From the NCBI GenBank assembly GCA_029258795.1, contig JAPDKB010000002.1, positions 128,001 to 192,000 on the forward strand: 64,000 bases of DNA, read 5' to 3'. The notes below the pieces were generated by a model. The model ran no database searches. It was not told the origin of the DNA and saw only the letters and a program-made list of their open reading frames with translations. Shown piece after piece: positions 1-52,915 of this stretch. Source of the stretch: an archaeon. Lineage in GTDB: Archaea; EX4484-52; WAPT01. The first letter of the stretch is position 1. Every line of letters begins with the position of its first letter. The translations under genes and the position numbers were made by a program.

Positions 1-153
1 AGCCCTTTCCGGCCACGGATGAATGTAGAGGGAAGGCATGCTTTTGCCTTCGGCAACAGCAATCATCACAGCTTCATCTACAGCCATCTGATGGTACGAA
101 TCCTTTATTTCCGGCAGCTCCACAAATCTGAAGGACGGCAAAGCCATACACAT
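1..153 (-). CDS. lplA: Lipoate-protein ligase A family protein, N-terminal part (runs off window edge; not in ORF track)
   Basis: Hand translation from ATG at 153: MCMALPSFRFVELPEIKDSYHQMAVDEAVMIAVAEGKSMPSLYIHPWPERA. Matches the LplA/LipM N-terminal 'MAxDEA...PxL..W' pattern; start overlaps upstream stop (TGATG); GcvH-like gene in same operon. Confidence 0.75.
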   Translation of the reverse strand, partial: MCMALPSFRFVELPEIKDSYHQMAVDEAVMIAVAEGKSMPSLYIHPWPERA

Positions 154-1484
154 CACTTCAGTTCAAGCTTCTTTCTGCATGCCATTGCAAGTTTTTCCAC
201 TATGTGGAACACGTCCGAAACGAGCGGGTGGTAGTTGAACATGTACTCCTCCACATCGTAAACGCTGGCTCTGTTTCTTATCATCACACTAGCAAGATTC
301 AGCAGTTCCGGAATGACCATGCTTCTTCCCGCTGCCTGTAGGCCGAGAAGCTTACCATCTTTACCAGAGCACACGAGCTTTACCACCTCCCTACCCTTAC
401 CGCGTGTCGTTGAACTTACCACATAATCGAAATGTGCTCTGGCATCTTTCTCCGTGAGACCGCACCCACCAAAATAAAACCCGTCAAGCACGCTTATCCA
501 GTTCTCCAAGAAGCCCGCATATTTCACGCTTTTCTCTCCACCGATTATTCTTGCAAGCATCATGGCTTGTTTTGCTGCAGATGGTGCAAATTTTGAGAGC
601 GCACGTTTGCCAGTGAGAAAATGCGTAACCTCGGCACAGTCCCCGCATGCGTAAACAGAAGGGATATTCGTGCGGAACTTATCATCAACAATTATCCCCA
701 CATCACATTCTATACCCGCCTTTCTAACCATTTCCAGATCGGGAACGAAGCCGGTGCAGTTAACTGCAAAATCAACCTTCAGCTTCTTCCCTCCTTCAAG
801 CAAGACACTCCCATCCTTTATCCCCAGAACCCTCACACCCGTTACGACCTCCACACCCCCTCTAACCTTTTCTTCCACAACTTCCGCAATATTACTATCG
901 AGCAAAGCGGGCAATATCGTGGGCTGAGCTTCAACCATCACAACTTTCAGTCCCCTCTTCTTCAGAGCCTCGCTCACCTCAAGTCCGATGAGACCGCTCC
1001 CAATGATTGCAACACTCTCGCTGTTACCAGCAAGTTCAATGATCCTGTCCGCATCCCTGACATTCTGAAGTTTGGTTAGAGGAACGGAACCATCGTGCTG
1101 GAGCTTTATCTTCGGCTTGGTGGCTCCGACACAGAGACAAAGAACGTCGTAACCTATTTCTCTATTCTTGCCATCGCTTTCTTCCGTTTCCACCTTAACG
1201 ATCTTCTCCCCAACGTCTATTTCTCTCAACTTCGATCCCAGCGCAACCTCAATTCCCTTCGAATTTATATCCTCCACTCCAAATCTGAAGAGATCTTTTC
1301 TGCTAACCTCTCCGGCTATATAATACGGAAGAAGGCAGGGCGAAAAGCCTATCTCATTACGCTCATTCACCAGCGTAACCTCAAACTTTCCCCGCTTGGC
1401 AAGCTCCAGAGCAAGGGTTATCCCCGCAACACCCGCGCCAATAACCACAACCCTTTTCCTGCTGAAGTTATCATCCCTTCGCAT
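153..1484 (-). CDS. FAD-dependent pyridine nucleotide-disulfide oxidoreductase (NADH oxidase/CoA-disulfide reductase-like)
   Basis: GAGVAG FAD motif, single-Cys 'FSPCLLPY' active site, GSGLIGLE NAD motif, 'YACGDC', C-terminal 'YHP'; start placed at MRRDD (1484). Confidence 0.88.
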   Translation of the reverse strand: MRRDDNFSRKRVVVIGAGVAGITLALELAKRGKFEVTLVNERNEIGFSPCLLPYYIAGEVSRKDLFRFGVEDINSKGIEVALGSKLREIDVGEKIVKVETEESDGKNREIGYDVLCLCVGATKPKIKLQHDGSVPLTKLQNVRDADRIIELAGNSESVAIIGSGLIGLEVSEALKKRGLKVVMVEAQPTILPALLDSNIAEVVEEKVRGGVEVVTGVRVLGIKDGSVLLEGGKKLKVDFAVNCTGFVPDLEMVRKAGIECDVGIIVDDKFRTNIPSVYACGDCAEVTHFLTGKRALSKFAPSAAKQAMMLARIIGGEKSVKYAGFLENWISVLDGFYFGGCGLTEKDARAHFDYVVSSTTRGKGREVVKLVCSGKDGKLLGLQAAGRSMVIPELLNLASVMIRNRASVYDVEEYMFNYHPLVSDVFHIVEKLAMACRKKLELK

Positions 1485-1830
1485 AATTTCCTTTCCCCTC
1501 GAATTCATTGAGCGCTTCCATGACATGCTGCAAGTACATCAGCGCTGGACCACCGCCCATCAACACGGCAACCCATGCCGCCTCCAGAATCTCTGCTCTC
1601 GTTGCACCGGCGTCCATTGCGTTCTTAACGTGCAGAACTATGCACGACTTGCACTGCGATTTCACGGCAAGCGCTACGGATATGAGTTCCTTCACCTTTT
1701 TTGAAAGTACGCCATCCTTCTCGCACACCTCCAGCAAATTCTGAAATGCTTCCCAGTGCTCAGCGTTTTCTTTCCCTATCAATCCGATGTTTCTGATAAT
1801 CTTTCTCATGAGATCTTCATACTCTCCCAT
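1471..1830 (-). CDS. Carboxymuconolactone decarboxylase/AhpD-like protein
   Basis: 'KELISVALAVKSQCKSCIVLH...GAT..EI.EA' AhpD core with CxxC and His. Confidence 0.88.
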   Translation of the reverse strand: MGEYEDLMRKIIRNIGLIGKENAEHWEAFQNLLEVCEKDGVLSKKVKELISVALAVKSQCKSCIVLHVKNAMDAGATRAEILEAAWVAVLMGGGPALMYLQHVMEALNEFEGKGNYAKG

Positions 1831-1852
1831 TGCAACCACCTCAATTCGATAC

Positions 1853-2251
1853 TCACCCTTCAGCGAGCATTCTTCTTTTTTCTTCCGCAGTATGAAGCGC
1901 TTTCAGCTCCCCCTCATTCTCAAGCTTAACCTTCATTATCCAGCTTCCATATGGATCGTGGTTTATGCGCGAGGGCTCGTCAAACAGCTCCTCATTGACA
2001 TCAACTATCTCTCCGCTTACAGGGCTTGAAATATGCCCGCTCCACTTTATCGCTTCAAGCGAAACGTACACATCACCTTTTTTTATCCTTTTTCCTTTTT
2101 CCGGCAGTTTTACGAACACAAACTCATCAACTTTTTTCACCGCCGGCTCAATTAATCCGACGCTAACAACACCATCTTTCTCAACCTTCACCCACGAGTA
2201 CTCATCATCGTAGAGCAGGTCTTCGGGCAGGTTGAACTCTCCGCTCATCAC
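1853..2251 (-). CDS. gcvH: GcvH-like lipoyl-carrier protein
   Basis: 'LLYDDEYSWV', lipoyl-Lys motif 'LEAIKWSGHISSPVSGEIVDVN', 'INHDPYGSWIMKV'. Confidence 0.85.
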   Translation of the reverse strand: MMSGEFNLPEDLLYDDEYSWVKVEKDGVVSVGLIEPAVKKVDEFVFVKLPEKGKRIKKGDVYVSLEAIKWSGHISSPVSGEIVDVNEELFDEPSRINHDPYGSWIMKVKLENEGELKALHTAEEKRRMLAEG

Positions 2252-3834
2252 GACTCACCCTTTCTTTTCATTTTCATGCTCTCTTTTTTATTTTTACTTG
2301 CACCGCCACTCTTTTCTTTATTTTTCTCTCTATCTTTGCTTTCCTTTTCCTGTCCTTTCACAATACCCAGCTTGAGAGACACGAGAGCGATGATAAGAGC
2401 AAGCCCTATCGCTCCAAGGAGAATAGCTACAGAGGTCAGCACGTTAGTGAGCAAGTTTGGATTGATGAGCAGCACCAGACCCAGAGCGAGCATCATCATG
2501 CCTGAAATGAGTTTCAACACTCTTCCCTGAAATTCGGTGAGCTTTCTCGCCCCCAAGGTCAGTGTGAAAGCAATCACGATCATCGCAAGAGGAATGACAT
2601 AGACAATGTTGTAAAGCACGAGGTAAGCATAATAATGGAGTGTGGGTAGCTCTCTTAGAGTGAGGATTCTTGTGAAGAGCATGGGGAAACCGGCTGTGCA
2701 CAGCAGCTCGTAGGTGTTTGCTGAAACCGCGAGCACGATTGTTCCCGCAAGCATGGCGGGCAAGGATTCAGATTTGAGGAGTTGTCTCATCCTTTTGAAG
2801 AGCTTTGGCTTTGCGCTCTCCGGAATGGTGAGCGAAACACCCTTCTTAAACGCAAAGAAGTCCTTTATGTTGATGAGAGCCATGACGACAGCCACCAATC
2901 CAGCTATCGTGGTGATGAAGGACACGCTGCCAGCTATCAGGAAAAAGTTGAGCCAAGCAGCCATGAAAAGGAAGTATATAAATCCGGAAAAGAAGACAAA
3001 AACACCACCTATCAGCAGCATTCTTTTGCGGGAGTTGGCATAGATGAGCATGCTCAGCAGGAAAAATAGCACGAAGAACGCACACGGGTTTATGCTGTCC
3101 AGCGCGCCCAATATGATCGTTATTAGCACCAAGCTTGAGGTTTGGGGGTTAAGGGAGGAAAGAAGAGGGACTTTGTTGAACTCGTTCCTGAGCTGGGAAA
3201 ACGGCGCTGAAATATTTGTACTTACATTTTCTTCCGTGCTTGGTGTACTCCACTCCTGCTCTTTCGCGATTTTTCCCGTTTCCTCATATTTTTTCAACAC
3301 CTCAAGTGGTGAGGGGCAGCCGTTTTTCAGACAAGAGACAATCATGCTTTCAATCTTGGTTCCTGTGGTGGAATCATCTCCGTATCCCACAACAGGATCG
3401 AACGTGCCTATGAATGTTGTGGGCACGCCCATGGCCTTCGTGCCATAAGCGACGGCCATTTTTTGAAAAAGAACAGCATTCGTTCGGTTATACCATACCT
3501 CCATATAATGTACTTTAAGGTAGGGCGCGTATTTTTCTTCAAGCTTCTGCAGGAATGGCTTCTCTTTTGCACAGTGCGGACAGCCATTACCCCAGAAGAA
3601 ATACACTTCTATGTAATGAAAAGATTGTGAGGTGGGTGAAGCTGTTGTGGTTGCGTGTTCGTTCTGCTCTGCTTTTGTAGGAATCTTCAAGGTGCAGGTT
3701 GTGGAGGAGGAAGTTGAAACGGAACATGTAGCTGCGGTGGGCTGAATAGAATGGCTGAATCCCAAGCTTGCACTCGCTATGAACACCAGAACGATTAAAG
3801 AGAGTATTGCCGGCAGAGAGATTTTGGTCTGCAT
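2248..3834 (-). CDS. Membrane redox protein: signal peptide, thioredoxin/glutaredoxin domain (CPHC), CcdA/DsbD-like transmembrane domain
   Basis: 'FFWGNGCPHC'; multiple TM helices with two membrane Cys ('SINPCAFF', 'ELLCTAGFP'). Confidence 0.8.
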   Translation of the reverse strand: MQTKISLPAILSLIVLVFIASASLGFSHSIQPTAATCSVSTSSSTTCTLKIPTKAEQNEHATTTASPTSQSFHYIEVYFFWGNGCPHCAKEKPFLQKLEEKYAPYLKVHYMEVWYNRTNAVLFQKMAVAYGTKAMGVPTTFIGTFDPVVGYGDDSTTGTKIESMIVSCLKNGCPSPLEVLKKYEETGKIAKEQEWSTPSTEENVSTNISAPFSQLRNEFNKVPLLSSLNPQTSSLVLITIILGALDSINPCAFFVLFFLLSMLIYANSRKRMLLIGGVFVFFSGFIYFLFMAAWLNFFLIAGSVSFITTIAGLVAVVMALINIKDFFAFKKGVSLTIPESAKPKLFKRMRQLLKSESLPAMLAGTIVLAVSANTYELLCTAGFPMLFTRILTLRELPTLHYYAYLVLYNIVYVIPLAMIVIAFTLTLGARKLTEFQGRVLKLISGMMMLALGLVLLINPNLLTNVLTSVAILLGAIGLALIIALVSLKLGIVKGQEKESKDREKNKEKSGGASKNKKESMKMKRKGES

Positions 3835-3904
3835 ATATCAACACTACCACTGAAACCTTATAAATATCTTGGTTTCAAAATCGGAAACCTTTTAATGATT
3901 TGAG

Positions 3905-6550: not shown

Positions 6551-7978
6551 ATGATGACAAAAGTACAGCCTCTTCGGGAATTCATTCAGGATGTTCGGGC
6601 AGGAAATGTTGATGAGGAGGAGTTCCTGCACAGCGTTATGGAAGCTTGTAGCAAGCTTGATGAGGAGTATGAGCCGTTCATAACTCTCAGGAATGTAGAA
6701 GAGGTGTTAGAGGAAGGTAGAGGTTTGCTAAAAACTAAAGGAAAGATGCCTCTCGTACCCTTCAGCGTGAAGGACAATATATGTACCGCTGGTGTTAGAA
6801 CCACCGCCGGTAGCAAAATATTGCACGACTACATTCCGTTTTTCGATGCCACCTGCGTTAAAGCTCTCAAGGATGAAGGTGCTGTTCTGATAGGCAAAAC
6901 CGCCACAGACGAGTTCGGATTTGGCACTTTCTGCACCAACTGCGCTTTTTGCACACCTAAAAATCCGCACGACAAGAGCAGGGTTTGTGGCGGTTCTTCC
7001 GGAGGAGCTGCATGTATAACAGCATTGGCGTCATTTCCGCACGTTGCAATCGCTGAAAGTACCGGCGGTTCTATAGCGTGTCCCGCAAGTTTCTGTGGAG
7101 TGTTCGGTTTCACCCCCACTTATGGTGTTGTGAGCAGGTACGGGCTGGTGGATTACGCTAACTCACTGGATAAAATAGGTCTGATGGCGAAATATATTGA
7201 TGACATCATGCTCGCATTTGAGTTCATATCCCGCAGGGATGAGCGTGATTCCACATGCGTTGGACTTGATAAGGAAGATCACGACATAACTCTTGAGAGG
7301 ATTACACTCGGGATTCCGAAAGAGTTTGTGGAAGCTGTAACGGATGAGAAAGTGCTGAAGACCTTCCAGAGCTTTGTGAAGAAGCTTGAGGGAAACGGCG
7401 TCAACATCGTTCAGGTGAGCATTCCATCCGTGAAATACGCTCTTGCAGCTTACTACATAGTTGCAACGGCTGAAGCTTCCACCAATCTAGCGAAGTTCTG
7501 CGGGATGAGGTACGGCTATGAGAAGAATCCGGAGGGAAAGCATTACAACGAGTATTTCAGCGAGGTGAGAAGCGAAGGTTTTGGGGAGGAGGCAAAACGA
7601 AGAATCCTCTTGGGTACATTTGCAAGGATGGCCGGTTACAGAGATGCTTACTACCTGAGAGCCTTGAAGGTCAGAACACTTGTGATCAGAGAGTTTGAGA
7701 AAGCTCTGAAGAATGCGGACTTTTTGCTGGCTCCAACTATGCCTGTACTTCCTCCACGTTTTGAAGATGTGAAGGAGATGAGCCCTGCCGAAGTTTACGC
7801 CATGGATGTGCTCACCGTGCCCGCCAACTTTGCTGGCTTACCTCACATTTCCCTGCCGTGCGGAAGCGTCGCTGGACTTCCGGTTGGGGTGCAGCTGATG
7901 GGCAGGCACTTTTCCGACTGGAAAATGCTTTCTCTGGCAAAAATAATGGAGGAAGCTGAACTCACGCATTCCTTCTGA
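6551..7978 (+). CDS. gatA: Asp/Glu-tRNA amidotransferase subunit A
   Basis: Amidase signature 'VKDNI', 'GGSSGG', 'STGGSI', 'GFGEEAKRRILLGTF'. Confidence 0.95.
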   Translation: MMTKVQPLREFIQDVRAGNVDEEEFLHSVMEACSKLDEEYEPFITLRNVEEVLEEGRGLLKTKGKMPLVPFSVKDNICTAGVRTTAGSKILHDYIPFFDATCVKALKDEGAVLIGKTATDEFGFGTFCTNCAFCTPKNPHDKSRVCGGSSGGAACITALASFPHVAIAESTGGSIACPASFCGVFGFTPTYGVVSRYGLVDYANSLDKIGLMAKYIDDIMLAFEFISRRDERDSTCVGLDKEDHDITLERITLGIPKEFVEAVTDEKVLKTFQSFVKKLEGNGVNIVQVSIPSVKYALAAYYIVATAEASTNLAKFCGMRYGYEKNPEGKHYNEYFSEVRSEGFGEEAKRRILLGTFARMAGYRDAYYLRALKVRTLVIREFEKALKNADFLLAPTMPVLPPRFEDVKEMSPAEVYAMDVLTVPANFAGLPHISLPCGSVAGLPVGVQLMGRHFSDWKMLSLAKIMEEAELTHSF

Positions 7979-10900
7979 GCAGGAGTATAAGTGTGGACAT
8001 GACCATCACAGCCATGAGTTGTACGAGCTCTATTCCCGGAGCTTGTGTTTCTGCTCCTTCTGCAACCAGCTCCTTAAAGTTTAGAGTTACGTCTGCAACT
8101 TGTTTTTGAGATGTGCTCCAGCTGGTTGCAGTGATTTTTAAAATACACGATGGTTTGGTTGGATCGTAGACTGGCGTATAGACCTTGACAGGAATCCTCG
8201 TGATTTTGCCTGGAGGAATTGTGAAGCTCGTCTCTTTCTCGTATGGTGTGCCTTCATAACCAGCAAACCACGCTCTCACAAACTTGGAGCATCCTGAAGT
8301 ATTCAGTTTGAGGTCTATTAACTCATTAAATGTGTTGGGGTTTTTTATAGTAACAACGAGCCTCTTTTCAACACCTACTGTAATGTCTAGATTAGATGTT
8401 ACTATAAGTGAAGCCGACTTCGGCACGGAAGCGGATTCTACGCATTTAGACCTCACACAGCTTCCTGTTGCACAATCGCTTGATGTGCTGCATTTACAAT
8501 CTTTATCAGCCTGAACTTTGATGTCAAGGGCAGTGTAGTTCTTGTTGCCTGCTTTGTCCCATGCAACAATATAATATTCTTTGGTTTCTGAAGTACATCT
8601 ATCTAACGATATTTTACATACCTTGTCCTTGTCTACCTGATACTTCCATTCACAAATCACCTGATCGCAGTTGGGTGTAGGACACACTCTTATAATATCG
8701 ACCCCGCTCTTCCCGACGGTCGGCGATGTCTCATTATCATAGACATCCTCCACATTTGGATATTTGAAGGTGATGACCCACACTCTACTCACATCATCAA
8801 ATGTGAGGTTGTATGCTGTTTCAGGGCTGTGAATCACCGGAGGAAGCACATCCGGCAGGAAGAGCGACTCTCCCTTATAAGTATTTGCTTCACACACATA
8901 GCCCTGCCCGTTCTCGTCAAATACCAGTGTACCCTGATGTACTTGCTTAACGAGAGGCACACCGGTAGCTATCTCCACATTTTCATCACCATCAGGAGCA
9001 CTTTCGCACTTCCAGACAGTATGGAACCCTTTATAACCTGAAGCCGCACTTGCATTGCATGCGTAACGTCCGGCAGGTAGTTCTGCAGCAAGGCTATCTG
9101 GTGTGTCATCACCTATCTTTTCAATTTCATGCGATACCCAATGCTCACCATCCTTACATGAGCGATACACTGGAATGGGTTGCTTAGATTCGATATGACC
9201 CAGTGCACTATCGAGACCCTTTGAGTTATAAAGCTTTTTCGCATCTTCAGCCAAAAAATTATTCGCTGGTCCAAAACCACAGAGAGCAACCTCGTAATAG
9301 TTTCCAGTTTTACCGTTCACTTCAAGTGTTACGGGATTCATCAAACATTCCTCCCAGTTATATATGCATGCTGCAAGCACAGCAGGATCGAGACCTGCGA
9401 GCTCACCATAATTCCAATTTATGTTTGCCATCTGTTTCACGTCGCAGGTAGTATTTATGGTCAATGTCAGATTAACCATATCTATATTTAACGAACAATC
9501 ATACCCTACCGTTATGTTAACATGTATAGATGCGTCACTTCCATACTCTATTTTGTACTTATCTGGCACGCAGGTAAATTTTGGAGTATCACAACCTGCA
9601 GGTTCCACGTTGAATGCTTCCAGAACTTCCGTGGTGGATGGTTTGGGCATATCGCTACTCAGCACTTCTTCAAGATCGTCTGAACTCTTAATTGAAGTAT
9701 AAAACTCCGATGCATTTTCAAAGCCATACTTTGTTACATCAACATTAGAAAGCTTTACTTCGATATCTTCTCTTTCTAGAACATCCGTAAGTTCTCCTCT
9801 AAAAACGACATCGTCTAGTTTTTCACTACAAATTTGGTCAGAGTAGAAAGCAAAATCTGCAACCGTTTCCAAAACGCTTAAAGTATCTTCCTTATTGGCA
9901 TTATAAGCGTCAACAAGATCTGACGCGTCGCATATTTCCATCCCGTTAATTTTTGGTATGTCGAAAACAGAGAGGATTACATTTGTTTTCCTTTGTCTGG
10001 TTGATGTGCCAGATAGTTGTTGAGGAGTCACTTGTTCATTCACACCGATTAAGAAGTCCTGAGAATAAAACACTCTATTATATCCATCTCCCACGACCAA
10101 TCCCGGACCGGTAGTCACGGATACGCTACCCCACCCACCGTCTGGTTCCGGTGCTGTGAGGCTCTTACGAGCCACAACATTTTCTATACCCTGTCTTAAT
10201 CTCTTTCTGAAAGCCCACGCCCTGTAAGCATCAACTTTCCAGCTTAAATTATAGTACTTTTTGAACACTTTCTGCGTGTCTGGAATTTTCAGTCCAAGCA
10301 TAGGATGGGATAAAGTTACACTTAAGTTTTTGTGTCTAGCGTAAATTCCAGTGAGAATGCTTTCAACTCCACCGCTCTCATTTACAAGGCTCACTTTTAC
10401 TCTCATCATAGGAATCCTGTTCTGACACGCCTGTATGAAAGCGTTAAAAGTAACATTGACAGTCTCGTTGGTGAGTGGCCATCCCGGAATCAAGGAGTCC
10501 ACACCACCCGGATTAAATTCAAACGTCAGCTCCGGATGCTTGGTAATACCACGCATTAACAGCCAGTAACCAAAAGTAGCACATCCTTTACAGTAATTAA
10601 ACTCATTGTTATATTCCCAGGGTTCTATCCACGCTTCTGGACTGTCACATGTGGGGTTACTATCGACTATACACATAAATTTGTTCGAGCTCGAAGCAAA
10701 TTGTTGTGTTGTGGTTGTTGCACTAGAACTAGATGAGGATGACGCAGATGCTGTATTATCTATGACTTCCCACACATCACATGTTGGGGGGTTGGCGCAC
10801 TTAACCTCTGCCCATTCAGCACAAGTCGGCGGATCTGCACAGCCGCTTACAGGTTTCCCGCTCCCGTCCGTGACATTTAATAATTTACCCTCCTGCCCTT

Positions 10901-11213
10901 CTACCCATTTCCAATTAGTTACGTAGGTGCCACCATGCCAGTCGCGCCTCTCATAACTCCAACACAGATAGCCATTACATTTAATACACAATCTTAGTGT
11001 GCCCTCACTGGTAGTGCCGGCAGTAGAATAAAGTGCGTTTTCAGGACAGATTCTGGCATCTGAACAGTCCCTGGTGTCTATTACGTTAACTAAGCTACAT
11101 AGAGATTGAGGGTTTTGCTTAACACATTTATCTGCAAAAACCTGCGAGACGAGGTGTGTATACATTATACCTGCAATCAACATTGTTAAAATAAAGACTC
11201 TTATCTTTCTCAT
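7962..11213 (-). CDS. Large Cys-rich secreted/surface protein with C-terminal membrane anchor
   Basis: Signal peptide, short Cys repeats (CADPPTC/CANPPTC), S/T linker, C-terminal 'APGI'-TM-'RRNA'. Confidence 0.75.
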   Translation of the reverse strand: MRKIRVFILTMLIAGIMYTHLVSQVFADKCVKQNPQSLCSLVNVIDTRDCSDARICPENALYSTAGTTSEGTLRLCIKCNGYLCWSYERRDWHGGTYVTNWKWVEGQEGKLLNVTDGSGKPVSGCADPPTCAEWAEVKCANPPTCDVWEVIDNTASASSSSSSSATTTTQQFASSSNKFMCIVDSNPTCDSPEAWIEPWEYNNEFNYCKGCATFGYWLLMRGITKHPELTFEFNPGGVDSLIPGWPLTNETVNVTFNAFIQACQNRIPMMRVKVSLVNESGGVESILTGIYARHKNLSVTLSHPMLGLKIPDTQKVFKKYYNLSWKVDAYRAWAFRKRLRQGIENVVARKSLTAPEPDGGWGSVSVTTGPGLVVGDGYNRVFYSQDFLIGVNEQVTPQQLSGTSTRQRKTNVILSVFDIPKINGMEICDASDLVDAYNANKEDTLSVLETVADFAFYSDQICSEKLDDVVFRGELTDVLEREDIEVKLSNVDVTKYGFENASEFYTSIKSSDDLEEVLSSDMPKPSTTEVLEAFNVEPAGCDTPKFTCVPDKYKIEYGSDASIHVNITVGYDCSLNIDMVNLTLTINTTCDVKQMANINWNYGELAGLDPAVLAACIYNWEECLMNPVTLEVNGKTGNYYEVALCGFGPANNFLAEDAKKLYNSKGLDSALGHIESKQPIPVYRSCKDGEHWVSHEIEKIGDDTPDSLAAELPAGRYACNASAASGYKGFHTVWKCESAPDGDENVEIATGVPLVKQVHQGTLVFDENGQGYVCEANTYKGESLFLPDVLPPVIHSPETAYNLTFDDVSRVWVITFKYPNVEDVYDNETSPTVGKSGVDIIRVCPTPNCDQVICEWKYQVDKDKVCKISLDRCTSETKEYYIVAWDKAGNKNYTALDIKVQADKDCKCSTSSDCATGSCVRSKCVESASVPKSASLIVTSNLDITVGVEKRLVVTIKNPNTFNELIDLKLNTSGCSKFVRAWFAGYEGTPYEKETSFTIPPGKITRIPVKVYTPVYDPTKPSCILKITATSWSTSQKQVADVTLNFKELVAEGAETQAPGIELVQLMAVMVMSTLILLLRRNA

Positions 11214-31992: not shown

Positions 31993-34900
31993 TCAACTCA
32001 CATCCACACTACAACCATTTCCAGGCAAAAACACCCAGTATGCCTTTCCTTTCTCCAGGGTATCTGGATTTACCCATTTCCCATCTTCAGGTTGCCAGTA
32101 ATACACAAAATTTTTAGGGATATTACATTTCTCCATGATCACTTCCACGCTTTGCCCTGTTCCCGGTATCAAATTCCAACCATTTACCAGCCCAACTCTT
32201 TCAATCTCAAAATCCTTGGGGCTTCCGACAACACAATCTTTTGACGAATACACATAATAACCACGGTTTGGTTGGATCTTTTTATTGCATATGAATGCTT
32301 GTCTCCTGCTATCCCACGTCCAGAAATAACACCCATCACGGCTTTTCAAATCACAGCCCGCGTTCTCAAAATCCTTTACTTCCAACTCGACTGGTGAGGA
32401 AATTAGGTTCCATCCCTGTTTTATCGGTAGCTGAACCACAACCTCTTCTGGTGTGGGAATTTCCGGGGTAATTTCAGGAGGCATTGGGATTTCTGGCTCT
32501 TCTACTTCCCCTTTTTCCTCCTCAGCACAGGTCACACAGTAATAATACTCATGTCCTCTGGAATCCTTACACGGCTTATCAAGCTTTACATAATTGCCTC
32601 TTCCATCACACTCATATTCCCAAATTTCCACTGATCCGCACCAGTATTCATTTCCGTACTCTTGTTTGCAAGAAATAAACTCTTTGATTTCTTTTTTCTC
32701 TTCAGCTCCACCTTCGGAGGACTCTTTTTCACTTTCGCCACCCGTATTATCGCTCTTACTATCCTTCTCTGAAGCTGCTGAAGACTCTAGAAGGAGTGTT
32801 ACGCTGCATTTGGTGTATATTATATTGCATATTTCCGTGCCGCTGAAACTGCATGCGCCATCCACATCATAGAGCATTATCATACTATCGTACTGACGGT
32901 CAGGTTGGATAGAAAGAACCTTTATTTTTATTCCGCCCACCTCTGCACTCTCCCCTTCACTCAGCTCAAGAGCAGATTTCTGGTCGTTTACTCTAACACC
33001 CATTTTTGCGAATAATCCTTCCCTTAATCCCTCGTCTTCCCACCTATGTTTTTCAGTATTTTTATATTCAGCAACGGCAACCAAAGACAGCATTATTTCC
33101 TTGCCACCAAATTCCATCTTTTTGTCTTGGTTGCATGATATTGTTAGTGTTTTTAAGTTACCGCCCTCGTTCGTATCTACACCTTTTTGAGTTTCTTGAT
33201 TTTTATTCTCTTCGGATTTTTCGGGCCCGTTTTCGCACTCTCGCTTCTCCACAACCCACTTCGTATTTGTTATCTCGTAATGGCATTTTCCTTTTTTAAT
33301 CTTCCAGATTTTACCCTTGCATTCATATTTTCTGTATTCCATCTTTCTCTCCGTAATTTTACAATTACCATCAGTTCTAACTCTTGTGTTTGAGGTAGAG
33401 TACCACTTACTCGGTGGGCAATCCTTATCCTTGCTGCACCGCATAGACTGCTTATTTTGATCTCCTTTTTCATTTTCCTTTCTTTCTTCTCCACCACTCT
33501 TCCTTTCACTTCCCTCTGAACCGCTTCCGCAACCCAAGCGCTTAACTTTTATTTCTACATACCCGTCCAAATAATCTATTTTGCATATCTCACCCTCCCC
33601 ACCTTTAGAACATACACCGTTTCCCGAATCATAGTATTCAACGTAATAATCCTCCTTAGGTTCCAAGGAAAGTACCTTGAACTCCCAGTCGCCTTCTCTG
33701 AAAACATTACCTTCTCTTACCGTATGGGTGTGTGTAGACTTTTCGTCAAAGACAAAGATATCCGTAAGCAGACCTTCTTCAGCCCAATCAATTTTCTCAG
33801 TGTCCACTTGTTTGAAGATGGACATCAATTGAATCTCGACACTTTTCCCTTCCAATTCAATTTTCTTTCTTTCAAACATCCGAATTTTAACTGTTTTCTC
33901 GCATTCGGATTTTGCTGGCTCTGATCCCACGTCAACCCAGCGCTTTCTGTATACTACCATGCAACGACCGCCATGATAATGAACATACTCCCCAACACAT
34001 CTGTATTTTTTGTAAACTTCCAGCCTTTGTTTTTTCATAACATTTCCCTTACGTACCGTTCTATACACATCCGTCGGATACCAACCGCTCTTACCACAGT
34101 CAGAGGCTCTCCAGCACCTTTTTCTAGGATAATCTGTTATGTTGACTTTTATTTTTGCTTTTGAAACATATTTTCTGCCTGCCTCTACACTTACTTCAAT
34201 TTCATTATCCTCATAAATGGCTGGCAGACTGTCTCTACATACGACTTCTTTCATCTCGTTTACCTTCAGAAATCTCGGATAATTGATAGTATCGCATGTG
34301 ACTCCGTTGAGGCGAAGAGTATATTCTGTATTGACGGACCCTGTATTTTTCAACTTTACTCTGATATCGAATTCTCTCCATAGCTCATCCCATCTAACCC
34401 TGATCTCCTTGGGCTCCACATCCATAATCTCCACTCTGTTATTACAACCATATCTTATTTCAAATTCATTTTTCATTTCATCAATAGAAGTTCCAGCTAT
34501 ATACCACCAATAGTCATAGAGAGGCCTATACTTACCTTTATACCATACCCAACTTATATGTGGTTGCAGGTAAGCAACATCTTCCTCGCCATCCATCATC
34601 ACCATTACCCAATGTTTTGGTAGTGAGCTAGTTCGCGTCGGGCACCTCAGCACATCCCATTTAGTCCCACAACTATCCGTCCAAGTTTCAACATAATCGC
34701 ACACAGTGTTTATGCAATCTTCTCTAAGTTTTCTGTCGCTATTCCATTTCGCAGAATACACACATTCCTCCGGATTTCTCTTTCTGATTTCGGGTGGTTT
34801 AACTTCTTTCTCGACCACTTCCAGTTTTATTTTAGCACTCTGATCATTTTTATTATAACATTTGGCATCCAAAAGTGTGACTTTTAAATCAAAATTATAT

Positions 34901-35799
34901 CCTTCAGCAACTGCGTGTCCTCCCTTATCTAGAATTGCAACATCCGAAAATTTATCAAACTTAAATCTGTACTTTCTGTTACGATTCCACCAGGAAGTAC
35001 ATCTCCATAAACAATCCTTTCCCAAAAACTCGATTGTGAAGGAAACTCCATTAAGAGTAACGGTTTTTCTTTCATGAACTCTTTCAAACTCAACTATGAT
35101 TTCTTTTCCTTCTAACCCATTATTGCTCGTATCTCCTGATTTGGATGGTTCTCCCGGTCCCGATGTTTCTTCTGGAGGTTCCGCGTAAGCAAATTTCACA
35201 TAATCAACTTTTATCTCAACATAATGATCATGCATATTACAATATTGCTTGCTTAAATCCTCAATTACTATCTTTAAATCTACTTCTTTTCCCGCGTACT
35301 TTGAAACATCTACCGAATACTCGCCTGATTTTTTATGGCCTTTTACTCCAGGTGTGTGGAACTTTAATACCCACTCATCATTTATTTTTATTCCAGTATA
35401 CCCTCCATACTCCTTTTCAACAACTTCCACATATGTTACCAGATACTTGGCGTTCTTAGGAACGTAGACTCTTTGTTTTAGCCCCGCTTCACCACAATAA
35501 CCTCCTTCACCATTAGTTCCCGATATAATTATTGCTTTTCCGTCCTTTATAGATATCTCTCCAGGCACATCGTTAGTTGTGCACCCAGAAGTTGGTACGT
35601 TATCACAAGAATCTATGGGTCTCTCAAATTTTTCCCAGCCTTTGCCATCGTTCAATCCATCATTGGGGTCAGAAAAATCATAGTTAACTATTCCCTCTAA
35701 CGAGGTACTTGATGAAAAACTCAGTGATGGGAACATAAGCGCTACAATAAATATTATCGATAAGTATATCGCCATCTGATTAAGGTTAGAACGGCACAT
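31993..35799 (-). CDS. Very large Cys-rich secreted protein with internal duplication and C-terminal GWNL repeats
   Basis: Signal peptide; two about 200-aa repeats; 'GWNLISSP' and 'GWNLIPG' modules; 1268 aa uninterrupted. Confidence 0.78.
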   Translation of the reverse strand: MCRSNLNQMAIYLSIIFIVALMFPSLSFSSSTSLEGIVNYDFSDPNDGLNDGKGWEKFERPIDSCDNVPTSGCTTNDVPGEISIKDGKAIIISGTNGEGGYCGEAGLKQRVYVPKNAKYLVTYVEVVEKEYGGYTGIKINDEWVLKFHTPGVKGHKKSGEYSVDVSKYAGKEVDLKIVIEDLSKQYCNMHDHYVEIKVDYVKFAYAEPPEETSGPGEPSKSGDTSNNGLEGKEIIVEFERVHERKTVTLNGVSFTIEFLGKDCLWRCTSWWNRNRKYRFKFDKFSDVAILDKGGHAVAEGYNFDLKVTLLDAKCYNKNDQSAKIKLEVVEKEVKPPEIRKRNPEECVYSAKWNSDRKLREDCINTVCDYVETWTDSCGTKWDVLRCPTRTSSLPKHWVMVMMDGEEDVAYLQPHISWVWYKGKYRPLYDYWWYIAGTSIDEMKNEFEIRYGCNNRVEIMDVEPKEIRVRWDELWREFDIRVKLKNTGSVNTEYTLRLNGVTCDTINYPRFLKVNEMKEVVCRDSLPAIYEDNEIEVSVEAGRKYVSKAKIKVNITDYPRKRCWRASDCGKSGWYPTDVYRTVRKGNVMKKQRLEVYKKYRCVGEYVHYHGGRCMVVYRKRWVDVGSEPAKSECEKTVKIRMFERKKIELEGKSVEIQLMSIFKQVDTEKIDWAEEGLLTDIFVFDEKSTHTHTVREGNVFREGDWEFKVLSLEPKEDYYVEYYDSGNGVCSKGGEGEICKIDYLDGYVEIKVKRLGCGSGSEGSERKSGGEERKENEKGDQNKQSMRCSKDKDCPPSKWYSTSNTRVRTDGNCKITERKMEYRKYECKGKIWKIKKGKCHYEITNTKWVVEKRECENGPEKSEENKNQETQKGVDTNEGGNLKTLTISCNQDKKMEFGGKEIMLSLVAVAEYKNTEKHRWEDEGLREGLFAKMGVRVNDQKSALELSEGESAEVGGIKIKVLSIQPDRQYDSMIMLYDVDGACSFSGTEICNIIYTKCSVTLLLESSAASEKDSKSDNTGGESEKESSEGGAEEKKEIKEFISCKQEYGNEYWCGSVEIWEYECDGRGNYVKLDKPCKDSRGHEYYYCVTCAEEEKGEVEEPEIPMPPEITPEIPTPEEVVVQLPIKQGWNLISSPVELEVKDFENAGCDLKSRDGCYFWTWDSRRQAFICNKKIQPNRGYYVYSSKDCVVGSPKDFEIERVGLVNGWNLIPGTGQSVEVIMEKCNIPKNFVYYWQPEDGKWVNPDTLEKGKAYWVFLPGNGCSVDVS

Positions 35800-51741: not shown

Positions 51742-51960
51742 ATGGCGACGGTAATAGATGTGACGGGCAAAGTCTGTCCATATCCGGTCGTGGTGGCTCT
51801 TGACAAGCTCAGAGAGATCAGCAAAAAGGGCGGAACGCTCGAGATCATAACGGACGAGCCCTTGGCAACCAGAAGCGTACCTGACGAGGCAAAAAGGCTT
51901 GGATTCAGAGCAACTGTAGAAAGAGTGGACAAGGGATGGAAGATAGTGATAAAAAAGTGA
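51742..51960 (+). CDS. tusA: TusA/SirA/YeeD family sulfur carrier
   Basis: 'IDVTGKVCPYPVV', 'LEIITD.P', 72 aa; TTTATATA at 51710-51717. Confidence 0.9.
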   Translation: MATVIDVTGKVCPYPVVVALDKLREISKKGGTLEIITDEPLATRSVPDEAKRLGFRATVERVDKGWKIVIKK

Positions 51961-51968
51961 GGTGAGGA

Positions 51969-52394
51969 TTGATGGGGCTTAAGGAGTTCTCATCCAAGGT
52001 CTGGGTTGGAGCAGTGCTCTTTTCGATCGTCAACGTCTTCATGTACTACAGCATCGGCAAGTTCTGGATCGGAGGGAGCAGCTTCCTGCCACTGATCGGC
52101 AGTCAGGTACAGAAGTTCCTGTTTCCACTGGTGGTCAATGCAGGAGTGGTGGTTGGGACATTTCTGGCAGCGTTGCTCACGAGGGAGTTCATAATAAGGA
52201 AGCCAACCTCTGACATAGTGAAGAGATCAATACTCGGTGGCTTCCTTATGGGTATAGGAGTTACATTAGCTCCAGGAACATGCTCCACACCGTTCGTCAC
52301 AGGAATGCCAATGCTGGGAGTGAACTCCTTCCTGTCAGTGATCGGTATAGTGATTGGAGCATATATAGGATACAGATGGGTGGGTAGAAAATGA
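51969..52394 (+). CDS. YeeE/YedE family sulfur-compound transporter, half-size subunit
   Basis: 4 TM helices, 'GGFLMGIG..LAPGTCS'; follows tusA. Confidence 0.75.
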   Translation: MMGLKEFSSKVWVGAVLFSIVNVFMYYSIGKFWIGGSSFLPLIGSQVQKFLFPLVVNAGVVVGTFLAALLTREFIIRKPTSDIVKRSILGGFLMGIGVTLAPGTCSTPFVTGMPMLGVNSFLSVIGIVIGAYIGYRWVGRK

Positions 52395-52915
52395 CGCTGG
52401 CACAACCAACTTTGCTATTGGGATTCCTGTTCGGCGTGGTCTTTGGTTTCATAGTGCAGAGAATGAGCTTCTGCGTTTCCACTGACCTGGCTCAGGCGTT
52501 TGCAGGAAACCCCAGGAGAATTCTGACGTGGCTCACGATAATTTTCATAATCACAGGAGCGGGATTCGTTTACCTCGGACCAAAAGCGGTTGGTCAGCTC
52601 AGGGGTTACGGAATCTACAACATAATTTCTGGGATTTTCTTTGGCGTGGGCATCGTACTCAGCGGTGGCTGCGTGCTTGGAACCCTCAGAAGGATGGGAG
52701 AGGGCTTTCTGCACTCATGGGTGGTCTTCGTTTCATGGCTTCCGGGAATGGCACTGGTGGTTTACGTCCTTAACCCGATATTGCAGGGTACGTACCACAT
52801 ACCAGAAAAGATGCCGCTGCTTTCGGACGTGCTTCACATCAGCAACTGGGCAGCTTATGCGCTGGTAGCAGTTGTGCTGCTTGTGATGACCTGCTGGGCC
52901 TACAGAAAGAAGTAA
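52391..52915 (+). CDS. YeeE/YedE family sulfur-compound transporter, half-size subunit
   Basis: 'GFLFG..FGF..QR..FC', 'G..FGVG..LSGGC..G.L.R.GEG'. Confidence 0.82.
   Translation: MTLAQPTLLLGFLFGVVFGFIVQRMSFCVSTDLAQAFAGNPRRILTWLTIIFIITGAGFVYLGPKAVGQLRGYGIYNIISGIFFGVGIVLSGGCVLGTLRRMGEGFLHSWVVFVSWLPGMALVVYVLNPILQGTYHIPEKMPLLSDVLHISNWAAYALVAVVLLVMTCWAYRKK

Follow-up and report, generated by a model that had tools for sequence, protein, structure and literature searches.

A lipoyl H-protein operon that may serve a CcdA-like transmembrane thiol relay in an archaeon

At the start of a 64,000-nucleotide (nt) stretch of archaeal DNA, here called the window (G000:C2:128001-192000), lies a candidate thiol-redox operon that is built around a GcvH-like lipoyl carrier. 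The genome, G000, comprises 1,168,407 bp on 23 contigs and is 96.3% complete. The operon consists of six tightly packed genes on the minus strand, of which five start in the window and the sixth lies beyond the window start. They encode, in this order, a membrane thiol-disulfide protein, the GcvH-like carrier, an AhpD-type CMD protein, a flavoprotein, the catalytic protein of a lipoate ligase (LplA) and an LplB-like protein (Table 1). The membrane gene and the GcvH gene overlap by 4 nt and a gap of 13 nt separates GcvH from CMD. The CMD and flavoprotein genes overlap by 56 nt from the first ATG, or by 38 nt with the start of the 451-amino-acid (aa) database copy P0121, and the flavoprotein and LplA genes again overlap by 4 nt. 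The original prediction, made from the letters of the window, had described five co-oriented genes with overlapping or short junctions and an LplA N-terminus at 1-153. The minus-strand open reading frames (ORFs) were found as placed, and LplA was confirmed by a match to LplA-B_cat in Pfam (E 2.8e-49). The product of the sixth gene has 95 aa and resembles the C-terminal domain of LplB (Lip_prot_lig_C, E 2.9e-8); this gene overlaps LplA by 19 nt. The split arrangement of archaeal ligases is present here, with separate adjacent genes for the catalytic (261 aa) and the accessory domain. The TATA-like box in front of the first gene is a putative promoter of the operon.

Table 1. Positions of the operon features and of related gene arrangements (window coordinates unless a locus is named; TM, transmembrane)
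Feature	Position or locus	Strand	Basis
Membrane thiol-disulfide protein, 528 aa; anchor, predicted outward thioredoxin fold, 7-TM domain and K/E-rich tail	2248..3834	-	ORF, homologs, model
N-terminal hydrophobic helix, residues 7-24, predicted signal anchor	3763..3816	-	predicted model
Thioredoxin-fold domain, residues 75-186; CPHC at 3571-3582	3277..3612	-	PDB sequence and fold matches
7-TM domain, residues 229-490; Cys251 at 3082-3084 (TM1), Cys379 at 2698-2700 (TM4)	2365..3150	-	
GcvH-like lipoyl carrier, 132 aa; K69 at 2045-2047	1853..2251	-	GCV_H
AhpD-type CMD protein, 122 aa; C63-x-x-C66-x-x-x-H70 at 1630-1653	1471..1839	-	CMD
Single-Cys FAD/NAD(H) disulfide-reductase-type flavoprotein, 457 aa; Cys64 at 1335-1337	153..1526	-	Pyr_redox_2
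LplA catalytic protein, first 52 of 261 codons; rest outside the window	1..156	-	ORF, LplA-B_cat
TTTATAA, TATA-like box, about 26 nt 5' of the ATG of the first gene	3860..3866	-	read from sequence
Rest of LplA and LplB-like gene, outside the window	L002 11102-12156	-	
Contiguous membrane gene-GcvH-CMD-LplA	L010, L022, L025 (complete Forterrea genome), L032, L042		
Membrane gene-GcvH, LplA a few kb further	L011, L012, L020		
Membrane gene-CMD only	L034, L082		
Membrane gene, radical SAM, LplA, LplB	L017		

The membrane protein belongs to a family with at least 6,909 homologs at E ≤ 1e-3 (8,000 scored). Against Pfam it gave a weak Thioredoxin_2 match (E 0.0048), which lies under the cut-off, and its TM part is covered by no Pfam model. 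The AlphaFold model (pLDDT 79.6) shows an N-terminal helix, a thioredoxin (Trx) fold and seven TM helices. For the Trx domain, the best sequence match in the PDB was 1fo5 (E 8.1e-6), which also carries CPHC, and VIA-align gave Z 9-10.8 against thioredoxins. When the sequence was read against the model helices, Lys/Arg-rich loops were seen after TM1, TM3 and TM5, followed by the K/E-rich tail; by the positive-inside rule this would place the Trx domain on the outside. C85 and C88 of the CPHC motif, C251 (in NPC) and C379 (in ELLCTAGFP) are invariant in 34 aligned members. The model puts the two membrane cysteines at helix breaks in TM1 (247-250) and TM4 (379-382) with a proline nearby. In the DsbD/CcdA family, TM1 and TM4 characteristically carry one cysteine each, at a break in the helix and close to a proline. 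An external CPHC domain and a TM cysteine pair had both been predicted, and both are upheld by the alignment and the model. For the window protein itself no DsbD/CcdA match was obtained in Pfam at E ≤ 0.01, so the name CcdA/DsbD given to it at first was the reader's inference and not a database fact.

The GcvH-like carrier matched GCV_H (E 1e-35) and contains no cysteine. K69, at the lipoyl-lysine position, is part of K-W-S-G-H, a motif shared without variation by all eight aligned GcvHs linked to such clusters, and which we take to differ from canonical GcvH. The protein passed the NCBIfam subfamily model NF002270 (127.5 bits, cut-off 117) and failed the equivalog TIGR00527 (104 bits, cut-off 115.85). 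It is the sole GCV_H and the sole Biotin_lipoyl match of G000. No GCV_T and no GDC-P match was found in the genome; for a control, the same search gave matches in control genomes. An E2 catalytic domain was not found in G000 either. The lack of GcvT, GcvP and 2-oxoacid dehydrogenase genes, first noticed for the window, thus holds for the whole 1.17-Mb genome at its 96.3% completeness. A search of G000 for LipA was negative, as was tblastn for a LipS-like radical SAM gene with four queries from related loci. The lipoate must therefore be salvaged, as had been proposed. An HdrB-type CCG domain (PF02754) was likewise not found in G000. By these searches the operon H-protein appears to be the only visible destination of lipoate in G000.

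The CMD protein matched PF02627 (E 7.4e-18) and the AhpD core domain TIGR00778 (48 bits, cut-off 27.8). E51, C63, C66 and H70 were invariant in eight cluster-linked CMD sequences. They follow E..CxxCxxxH, the catalytic pattern of AhpD, and the expected AhpD-like CxxC is in place; its two cysteines are the only ones of the protein. The sole AhpC-TSA match of G000 (24.6 bits, cut-off 26) turned out to be a classical WCMPC thioredoxin of 109 aa. With no peroxiredoxin above the cut-off in G000, the CMD protein has no AhpC-type partner there. TrxB is encoded in G000 as well (349 bits, cut-off 343.45). The proposal that the lipoyl system works in place of thioredoxin and its reductase does not hold for this genome.

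The flavoprotein matched Pyr_redox_2 (E 8.6e-54) and Pyr_redox_dim. It has cysteines at positions 64, 130, 132, 257, 274, 294, 297, 355, 386 and 450. Cys64, within GFSPCLLPYY, aligned with the catalytic cysteine of CoADR, NoxA-3 and CoA-persulfide reductase among the PDB matches. For the family comparison, 19 linked flavoproteins were extracted from related loci and aligned together with the window copy and P0122. Cys64 was the only cysteine invariant in these 21 sequences, which agrees with the single-Cys enzyme that had been expected. Glu or Asp closes the beta-2 strand of the NAD fold in 21/21. An acidic residue at the end of beta-2 in a Rossmann fold is the textbook sign of NADH, and suggests that NADH is the substrate here. 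The N-terminal CxxxxC is absent and the Lpd equivalog TIGR01350 scored 114.6 bits (cut-off 408.8). The CoADR equivalog TIGR03385 (228.3 bits, cut-off 578.8) and NF046103 (124.7 bits, cut-off 600) were also missed, and no fused rhodanese domain was found with Pfam. The identity to proteins of the CoADR/Nox/CoA-persulfide-reductase type was 27-35%, and 43% to P0122.

A tree was calculated from 49 rows, namely the window copy, P0122, 17 linked copies with a length of 380 aa or more and, as outgroups, 30 proteins of CoADR/Nox/NPSR type, for which every fourth of the matches P0123-P0240 was taken. All 19 linked rows were set apart from the outgroups by one branch (UFboot 82, SH-aLRT 68; 82% of the bootstrap trees), 18 of them grouped at 94/94, and the window copy paired with P0122 at 100/100. 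The linked flavoproteins form one clade that is separate from the outgroups and always stands beside GcvH. When the metagenomes were scanned with the flavoprotein alone no relative was found; the homologs surfaced by way of the GcvH alignment.

The conservation of the gene set, a test set beforehand, was followed from two anchors and is seen from both. With the membrane protein as anchor, 80 loci were fetched from species-representative genomes (tblastn and Pfam), 15 of them archaeal and 65 bacterial. GcvH lay directly downstream in 8 of the 15 archaeal loci, CMD was present in 7 and LplA in 9. None of these three genes was found in the 65 bacterial loci, and the flavoprotein was found in none of the 80. 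The membrane gene-GcvH cluster is carried by 8 of the 11 archaeal genomes that were searched, and all eight were without GcvT and E2. GcvT was seen in one of the 11, a genome without the GcvH pairing, and E2 in none. The record titles of the small genomes with the cluster name Woesearchaeota, Pacearchaeota, Iainarchaeota and similar lineages.

With GcvH alone as the anchor (alignment A4), 48 loci were collected from metagenome contigs. After L134, L138, L149, L156 and L159 had been dropped as duplicates 43 remained, and only loci with enough flanking DNA entered each count. The membrane gene was found directly upstream of GcvH in 27/29, usually overlapping it, and LplA within 5 kb downstream in 18/19. 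A radical SAM gene was present in 10/19, a flavoprotein homolog within 4 kb downstream in 12/21 and CMD within 2.5 kb downstream in 11/34. Either CMD or the flavoprotein accompanied GcvH in 17/19 loci, whereas both were present in 3 and neither in 2. The tightest link is therefore that of the membrane gene to GcvH, followed by GcvH with the ligase and then by GcvH with one of the two thiol-active partners. L148 has the order of the window, membrane gene-GcvH-CMD-flavoprotein-LplA, and L157 has this order with an additional radical SAM gene and LplB. Unrelated contigs thus show the identical order again, and the arrangement goes beyond chance. L155 and L156 have GcvH, CMD and the flavoprotein but lack the membrane gene, and GcvH and CMD are separated there by a gene of glycoside hydrolase family 15; evidently the cytoplasmic part can stand alone. 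The closest relatives of the window proteins are P0245 (GcvH, 79% identical), P0001 (membrane protein, 70%) and P0122 (flavoprotein, 43%). Each of them lies on an NCBI contig of 74,064 bp, and from this equal length they probably share one contig.

The operon was then compared with the same place in its relatives. The phylum is represented by 42 genomes in the collection, and 40 relatives were compared. Between Orc1/Cdc6 and Dph2, G000 has 5.6 kb, which contain a NUDIX gene, a small ORF and the six operon genes. The same-genus genome G002 has about 0.37 kb there, and G001, of the same genus, about 1.7 kb with one 241-aa ORF. GCV_H was found in 0/40 relatives. A relative of the flavoprotein was present in 3/40 with 32-33% identity, in neither congener. 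Since the block is missing between the same flanks in two congeners and GcvH from all 40 relatives, the operon is an accessory island. Acquisition from outside the lineage would be a simpler reading than loss in the congeners. The TM domain of the window protein is 53-71% identical to homologs of other lineages (alignment A2). GC is 0.46-0.49 over the operon versus 0.41-0.47 in the next few kb, which gives no clear foreign signal. These findings are best explained by a redox module that is complete in itself, moves horizontally and centres on an orphan lipoylated H-protein.

The gene set suggests the following sequence of events. LplA and the LplB-like protein would attach salvaged lipoate to K69 of the carrier, and the flavoprotein would reduce the lipoyl disulfide with NADH through Cys64 and FAD. 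The dihydrolipoyl arm could then reduce the Cys251/Cys379 pair in the TM domain, either directly or via the CxxC of the AhpD-type protein. The TM cysteines would hand the electrons to the outward CPHC domain, which in turn may reduce oxidised thiols of surface or secreted proteins. Each of these transfers, and the direction of flow, we infer from the parts. That the lipoyl-H-protein module is functionally coupled to the membrane protein, in whichever direction, we regard as quite probable. For the more specific proposal, in which the module feeds a CcdA-like transmembrane relay that works outward as a reductant, the balance stands about even. The linear chain through the AhpD-like protein that was first drawn has all its parts at the locus, whereas the AhpD-like protein as an obligatory step has been weakened. 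CMD and the flavoprotein are mostly alternatives to each other, so CMD is unlikely to be the required link from the carrier to the membrane protein. More probably it sits on a side branch, or serves the lipoyl arm as an alternative partner. Outward flow would be favoured by analogy with the behaviour of DsbD and CcdA, by the reductase nature of the flavoprotein's relatives and by the kinship of the outer domain to 1fo5 with its CPHC.

Several results weigh against this proposal. The first group concerns the TM domain. None of the 34 family members gave a DsbD_TM or DsbD_2 match in Pfam even at E ≤ 1. Since fold searches with the full-length model matched the Trx domain only, the TM domain was folded and searched separately. 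With hhalign its probability against DsbD_2 was 0.09, for one DsbD_2 protein only. Foldseek listed CcdA (5vkv) at E 0.86, yet with the top TM-scores of the list (0.40/0.46). VIA-align to 5vkv gave Z 7.6 with a root-mean-square deviation of 4.7 over 198/224 residues; this was rank 8, the best Z being 8.9, and a Z of 7.6 falls where helical bundles match by chance. The named neighbours in a protein-language-model atlas (Atlas) were SfLAP/DsbD_TM clusters at 0.91 and a CcdA cluster at 0.87. Sequence and model do not suffice to place the TM domain in DsbD/CcdA, and CcdA-like is used here as a description of how the domain may work, not as a family assignment. A predicted complex of the TM domain with GcvH reached scores of 0.01 and 0.09 (mark 0.32), which speaks neither for nor against binding.

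The second group concerns the electron donor. Trx and TrxB are the usual donors for CcdA/DsbD and both are encoded in G000, so that a lipoyl donor to the membrane protein is not forced. The TM-domain family also occurs without GcvH in 25/40 relatives, with 26-45% identity and not in the congeners. CMD without the flavoprotein was seen in five genome loci and several metagenome loci, and CMD-only genomes, including the complete Forterrea genome, showed only a Pyr_redox_2 protein of TrxR size, which leaves a reductive chain there without a visible source. The direction of flow is affected as well. CPHC is also the motif of DsbA. To our knowledge, E3 and AhpD withdraw electrons from the dihydrolipoyl group in all characterised lipoyl systems, and this fits the opposite direction equally well.

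With the electrons running inward, the same relay would be a quinone-independent machinery for disulfide formation. The CPHC domain would oxidise secreted Cys-rich proteins, lipoyl-GcvH would serve as the electron sink, and either the flavoprotein, with NAD+ or O2 as acceptor, or the AhpD-like protein would oxidise its dihydrolipoyl form again. We consider this unlikely, although it accounts for observations that burden the outward proposal. Two alternative recyclers would explain the swapping of CMD and flavoprotein between clusters, which resembles two interchangeable sinks, and every cluster variant would be complete. The outer domain has Val before the cis-Pro, which together with CPHC is the DsbA pattern, and the family member P0030 is fused to a VKOR domain (PF07884). 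Two signal-bearing proteins of the window, with 41 and 46 cysteines, would be possible clients. Quinones, as needed for DsbB or VKOR, would be unexpected in such small genomes. Among solved structures, however, the outer domain is closest to the small archaeal thioredoxin 1fo5, which is reportedly strongly reducing, and the single-Cys flavoprotein class is known from the names of the PDB matches as NAD(P)H-consuming reductases or oxidases. E3 and AhpD are known oxidants of dihydrolipoyl proteins (excerpts of PMC6067878 and PMC12440151), whereas lipoamide with its E0' of -0.29 V is a poor oxidant for protein dithiols (PMC6067878, in part). The characterised DsbD/CcdA-type proteins all move electrons outward and export reductant, according to portions of PMC2631958 and PMC3322552.

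The operon might also combine two functions that share co-regulation only. NADH, the flavoprotein, lipoyl-GcvH and the AhpD-like protein would then form a cytoplasmic system against oxidants or disulfide stress, the membrane protein would be fed by Trx, and the genes would stand together as an island for oxidative stress. This is less likely still. Trx and TrxB are at hand in G000, and L155/L156 hold the cytoplasmic genes without the membrane gene. The membrane family is found without GcvH in the 65 bacterial loci as well as in the 25 relatives mentioned. The membrane-gene loci of 11 relatives were inspected with 1.5-kb flanks; none adjoined GcvH, CMD, flavoprotein or LplA, and one of them (L104) had a Trx-like gene beside the membrane gene. 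In Shewanella the gene adjoins OhrR/Ohr or CpxP-CpxRA stress genes. In Staphylococcus aureus, the lipoyl carrier GcvH-L promotes resistance to oxidative stress (PMC12440151, in part). Against a mere co-regulation stands the junction of the membrane gene with GcvH, which is conserved more tightly than those of GcvH with CMD or the flavoprotein, and G000 offers no above-cut-off peroxiredoxin that could take electrons from the AhpD-like protein.

A role in the handling of sulfane sulfur or persulfides akin to LbpA, with the lipoyl arm carrying sulfur and the flavoprotein acting as persulfide reductase, is improbable. In L012 and L020, TusA and a YeeE-like transporter stand between GcvH and LplA; DsrH and DGC were found in L020 in addition, and DUF169 occurs in L011 and L012. 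The window itself carries TusA and a split YeeE-like gene, and CoA-persulfide reductase is among the best PDB matches of the flavoprotein. Split LplA/LplB ligases and radical SAM genes accompany LbpA (excerpts of PMC6067878 and PMC10332631). The carrier, however, is without cysteine, whereas LbpAs share two conserved ones, some archaeal LbpAs excepted (PMC6067878, in part). G000 has no HdrB-type CCG domain and its flavoprotein no rhodanese fusion. Sulfur-transfer genes were seen in two clusters only, L012 and L020; queries with TusA, YeeE-like and DsrH proteins found nothing in the 48 GcvH-anchored loci, and a Pfam scan of seven of these was likewise negative. An ordinary GcvH, as a remnant of glycine cleavage or as a lipoyl-relay donor to E2 subunits, is hardly credible: relatives bear the public name 'glycine cleavage system protein GcvH' and NF002270 was passed, yet G000 has no T protein, P protein, E2 or further lipoyl domain, the eight genomes with the membrane gene-GcvH pair have neither GcvT nor E2, the equivalog was missed, and the K-W-S-G-H motif, which is taken to differ from canonical GcvH, is invariant in 8/8.

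The operon resembles several known systems without being identical to one of them. With the mycobacterial Lpd-DlaT-AhpD-AhpC chain it shares three kinds of component, here encoded together: the NADH flavoprotein, the lipoylated protein and the AhpD-type protein with E..CxxCxxxH. The chemistry from the dihydrolipoyl group to AhpD and on to a thiol acceptor is known from mycobacteria, where AhpD takes electrons from a dihydrolipoyl protein (PMC12440151, in part). In the operon, by contrast, the carrier is an orphan H-protein and not an E2, the flavoprotein is of the single-Cys CoADR/Nox type and not a CxxxxC Lpd, AhpC is missing from G000, and the conserved partner is a membrane protein with a Trx fold. 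DsbD, CcdA and ScsB have, like the membrane protein, two essential-looking cysteines in TM1 and TM4 at Pro-flanked helix breaks and a fused extracytoplasmic Trx-fold domain, and CcdA was the solved structure that covered the TM domain best, in a match that was not significant. They differ by their DsbD_TM/DsbD_2 profiles, which the operon protein with its N-terminal Trx domain and seven TM helices does not match. They also rely on thioredoxin, whereas the operon membrane gene is translationally coupled to the gene of a lipoyl carrier.

The LbpA-sLpl(AB)-LipS1/LipS2 system of sHdr sulfur oxidisers likewise has a GcvH-like protein outside glycine cleavage with its own split ligase (excerpts of PMC6067878 and PMC10332631), and the radical SAM gene in 10/19 related clusters is a further likeness. 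G000 differs in the lack of sHdr and in the Cys-less carrier. The LbpA pathway uses two LipS genes, whereas the inspected clusters have one radical SAM gene and G000 has none. In the GcvH-L/LplA2/SirTM/Macro operon of Staphylococcus and Streptococcus, an H-protein with a second function stands with a salvage ligase, an oxidoreductase neighbour and a link to oxidative stress (PMC12440151, in part). The operon described here has no sirtuin or macrodomain, and GcvH-L still acts as a lipoate donor for E2 subunits, whereas G000 lacks E2. MdrA (MA3736) of Methanosarcina acetivorans is a small archaeal CMD protein with a CxxC and acts as a disulfide reductase (parts of PMC3426412 and bioRxiv 10.1101/2024.03.05.583561). 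L034 and L082, whose record titles read uncultured Methanosarcinales, have CMD directly beside the membrane gene. MdrA reportedly has an Fe-S cluster and further cysteines, in which it would differ from the window CMD protein with its CxxC cysteines only. CoADR, NADH oxidase and CoA-persulfide reductase share with the flavoprotein the fold, the position of the catalytic cysteine and the FAD and NAD(H) folds, whereas the operon protein stays far under their equivalog cut-offs and belongs to a separate GcvH-linked clade.

Full-text literature searches, with the supplements of PMC10332631 outside their scope, found no description of the gene set, and among the papers that one of them listed no DPANN genomics paper had 'lipoate' or 'GcvH' in it. 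In PMC10332631, LipS1/S2 and LplAB are discussed across archaeal phyla, with LipS1/S2 absent from most DPANN-type phyla, and its main text makes no mention of thioredoxin or of the cluster described here. In public records the relatives go by 'glycine cleavage system protein GcvH', 'thiol-disulfide isomerase/thioredoxin' or 'glutaredoxin'. The gene set looks like a CcdA-like relay joined to a lipoyl-AhpD chain, and as such like an undescribed thiol link from the cytoplasm to the outside. Lipoate is the swinging arm of five enzyme complexes and, as found lately, also of sHdr sulfur oxidation; the cluster sits in genomes without the five classical complexes or sHdr. In these small archaeal genomes an H-protein and a ligase, in some cases also a radical SAM gene, are kept in what seems to be a module for one purpose only, with the H-protein gene regularly joined to that of a membrane thiol-disulfide protein. 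If the carrier feeds or drains a TM relay, this would be a new physiological role for protein-bound lipoate and a new donor or acceptor for membrane electron transfer of the CcdA/DsbD type. It would also explain why a "glycine cleavage H protein" is annotated in organisms without glycine cleavage. Inward flow, if true, would add a new way of forming disulfide bonds in organisms that have neither quinones nor a respiratory chain. With its small parts and the standard assays that exist for them, the idea is directly testable.

Further genes were observed around the clusters. A DUF7343 winged-helix protein of about 160 aa is encoded beside the membrane gene in 9/15 archaeal genome loci, upstream of it where the order was checked. 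It was noted in L010, L012, L017, L020, L034, L038, L042, L082, L125 and L148 and in several metagenome loci. In G000 the only clear DUF7343 homolog (C2:75509-75958) lies about 52 kb before the window, away from the operon. A free-standing CPHC Trx-like gene, about 60% identical to the outer domain of the window protein, was found right after GcvH in L012 (10015-10476) and L020 (9660-10142). Its products carry a lipobox-like signal (..VSGC) and are likely extracellular partners of the membrane protein. A related free-standing gene of this outer-Trx-like kind is present, likewise right after GcvH, in L130 (7378-7824). One radical SAM gene for about 280 aa stands between the flavoprotein and LplA in L113, L125, L126, L130, L157 and others. 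Rarer neighbours were DUF169, DGC, TusA, a YeeE-like transporter, DsrH, ArsR and an ArsP permease. Within the membrane family, many members (P0004, P0005, P0007 and others) have a second Trx/Grx-like domain of CPQC type between the first Trx and the TM domains. The Shewanella genes next to OhrR/Ohr or CpxP-CpxR-CpxA are those of L060 and L045, and cultured Shewanella species would permit genetics on the family.

The surroundings of the operon were also inspected. Beyond the LplB-like gene follow an 88-aa ORF on the plus strand and then the NUDIX gene on the operon strand, while Dph2 is divergently transcribed past the membrane-gene end. Dph2, Orc1/Cdc6, GatA and a TFS-like zinc-ribbon protein are among the flanking genes and identify their source as archaeal. 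The NUDIX hydrolase and the 88-aa ORF, which has no family, lie just outside the window start (L002 10357-11095) in the 5.6-kb stretch missing in the congeners. The NUDIX region (query 7406-7689) has a 66%-identical DNA match on a different contig of G002. In L148 a Dph2-type ORF or N-terminal fragment (10336-10575) was seen past the ligase genes, whereas the Dph2 of the window flanks the opposite side. The Cys-rich surface proteins that had been proposed as clients do exist nearby. Both have N-terminal hydrophobic signals, one with 41 cysteines (1083 aa, 7962-11213, minus strand) and one with 46 (1268 aa, 31993-35799, minus strand). In the two same-genus genomes without the island, the sole match was one of 26% identity to about the last 240 residues of the 41-Cys protein. 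Further into the window, on the plus strand at 51742-52915, a gene for TusA (72 aa, E 1.7e-16) precedes that of a YeeE/YedE-type sulfur transporter, which is split in two overlapping ORFs, of which 51969-52394 matches the C-terminal half and 52391-52915 the N-terminal half of the Pfam model.

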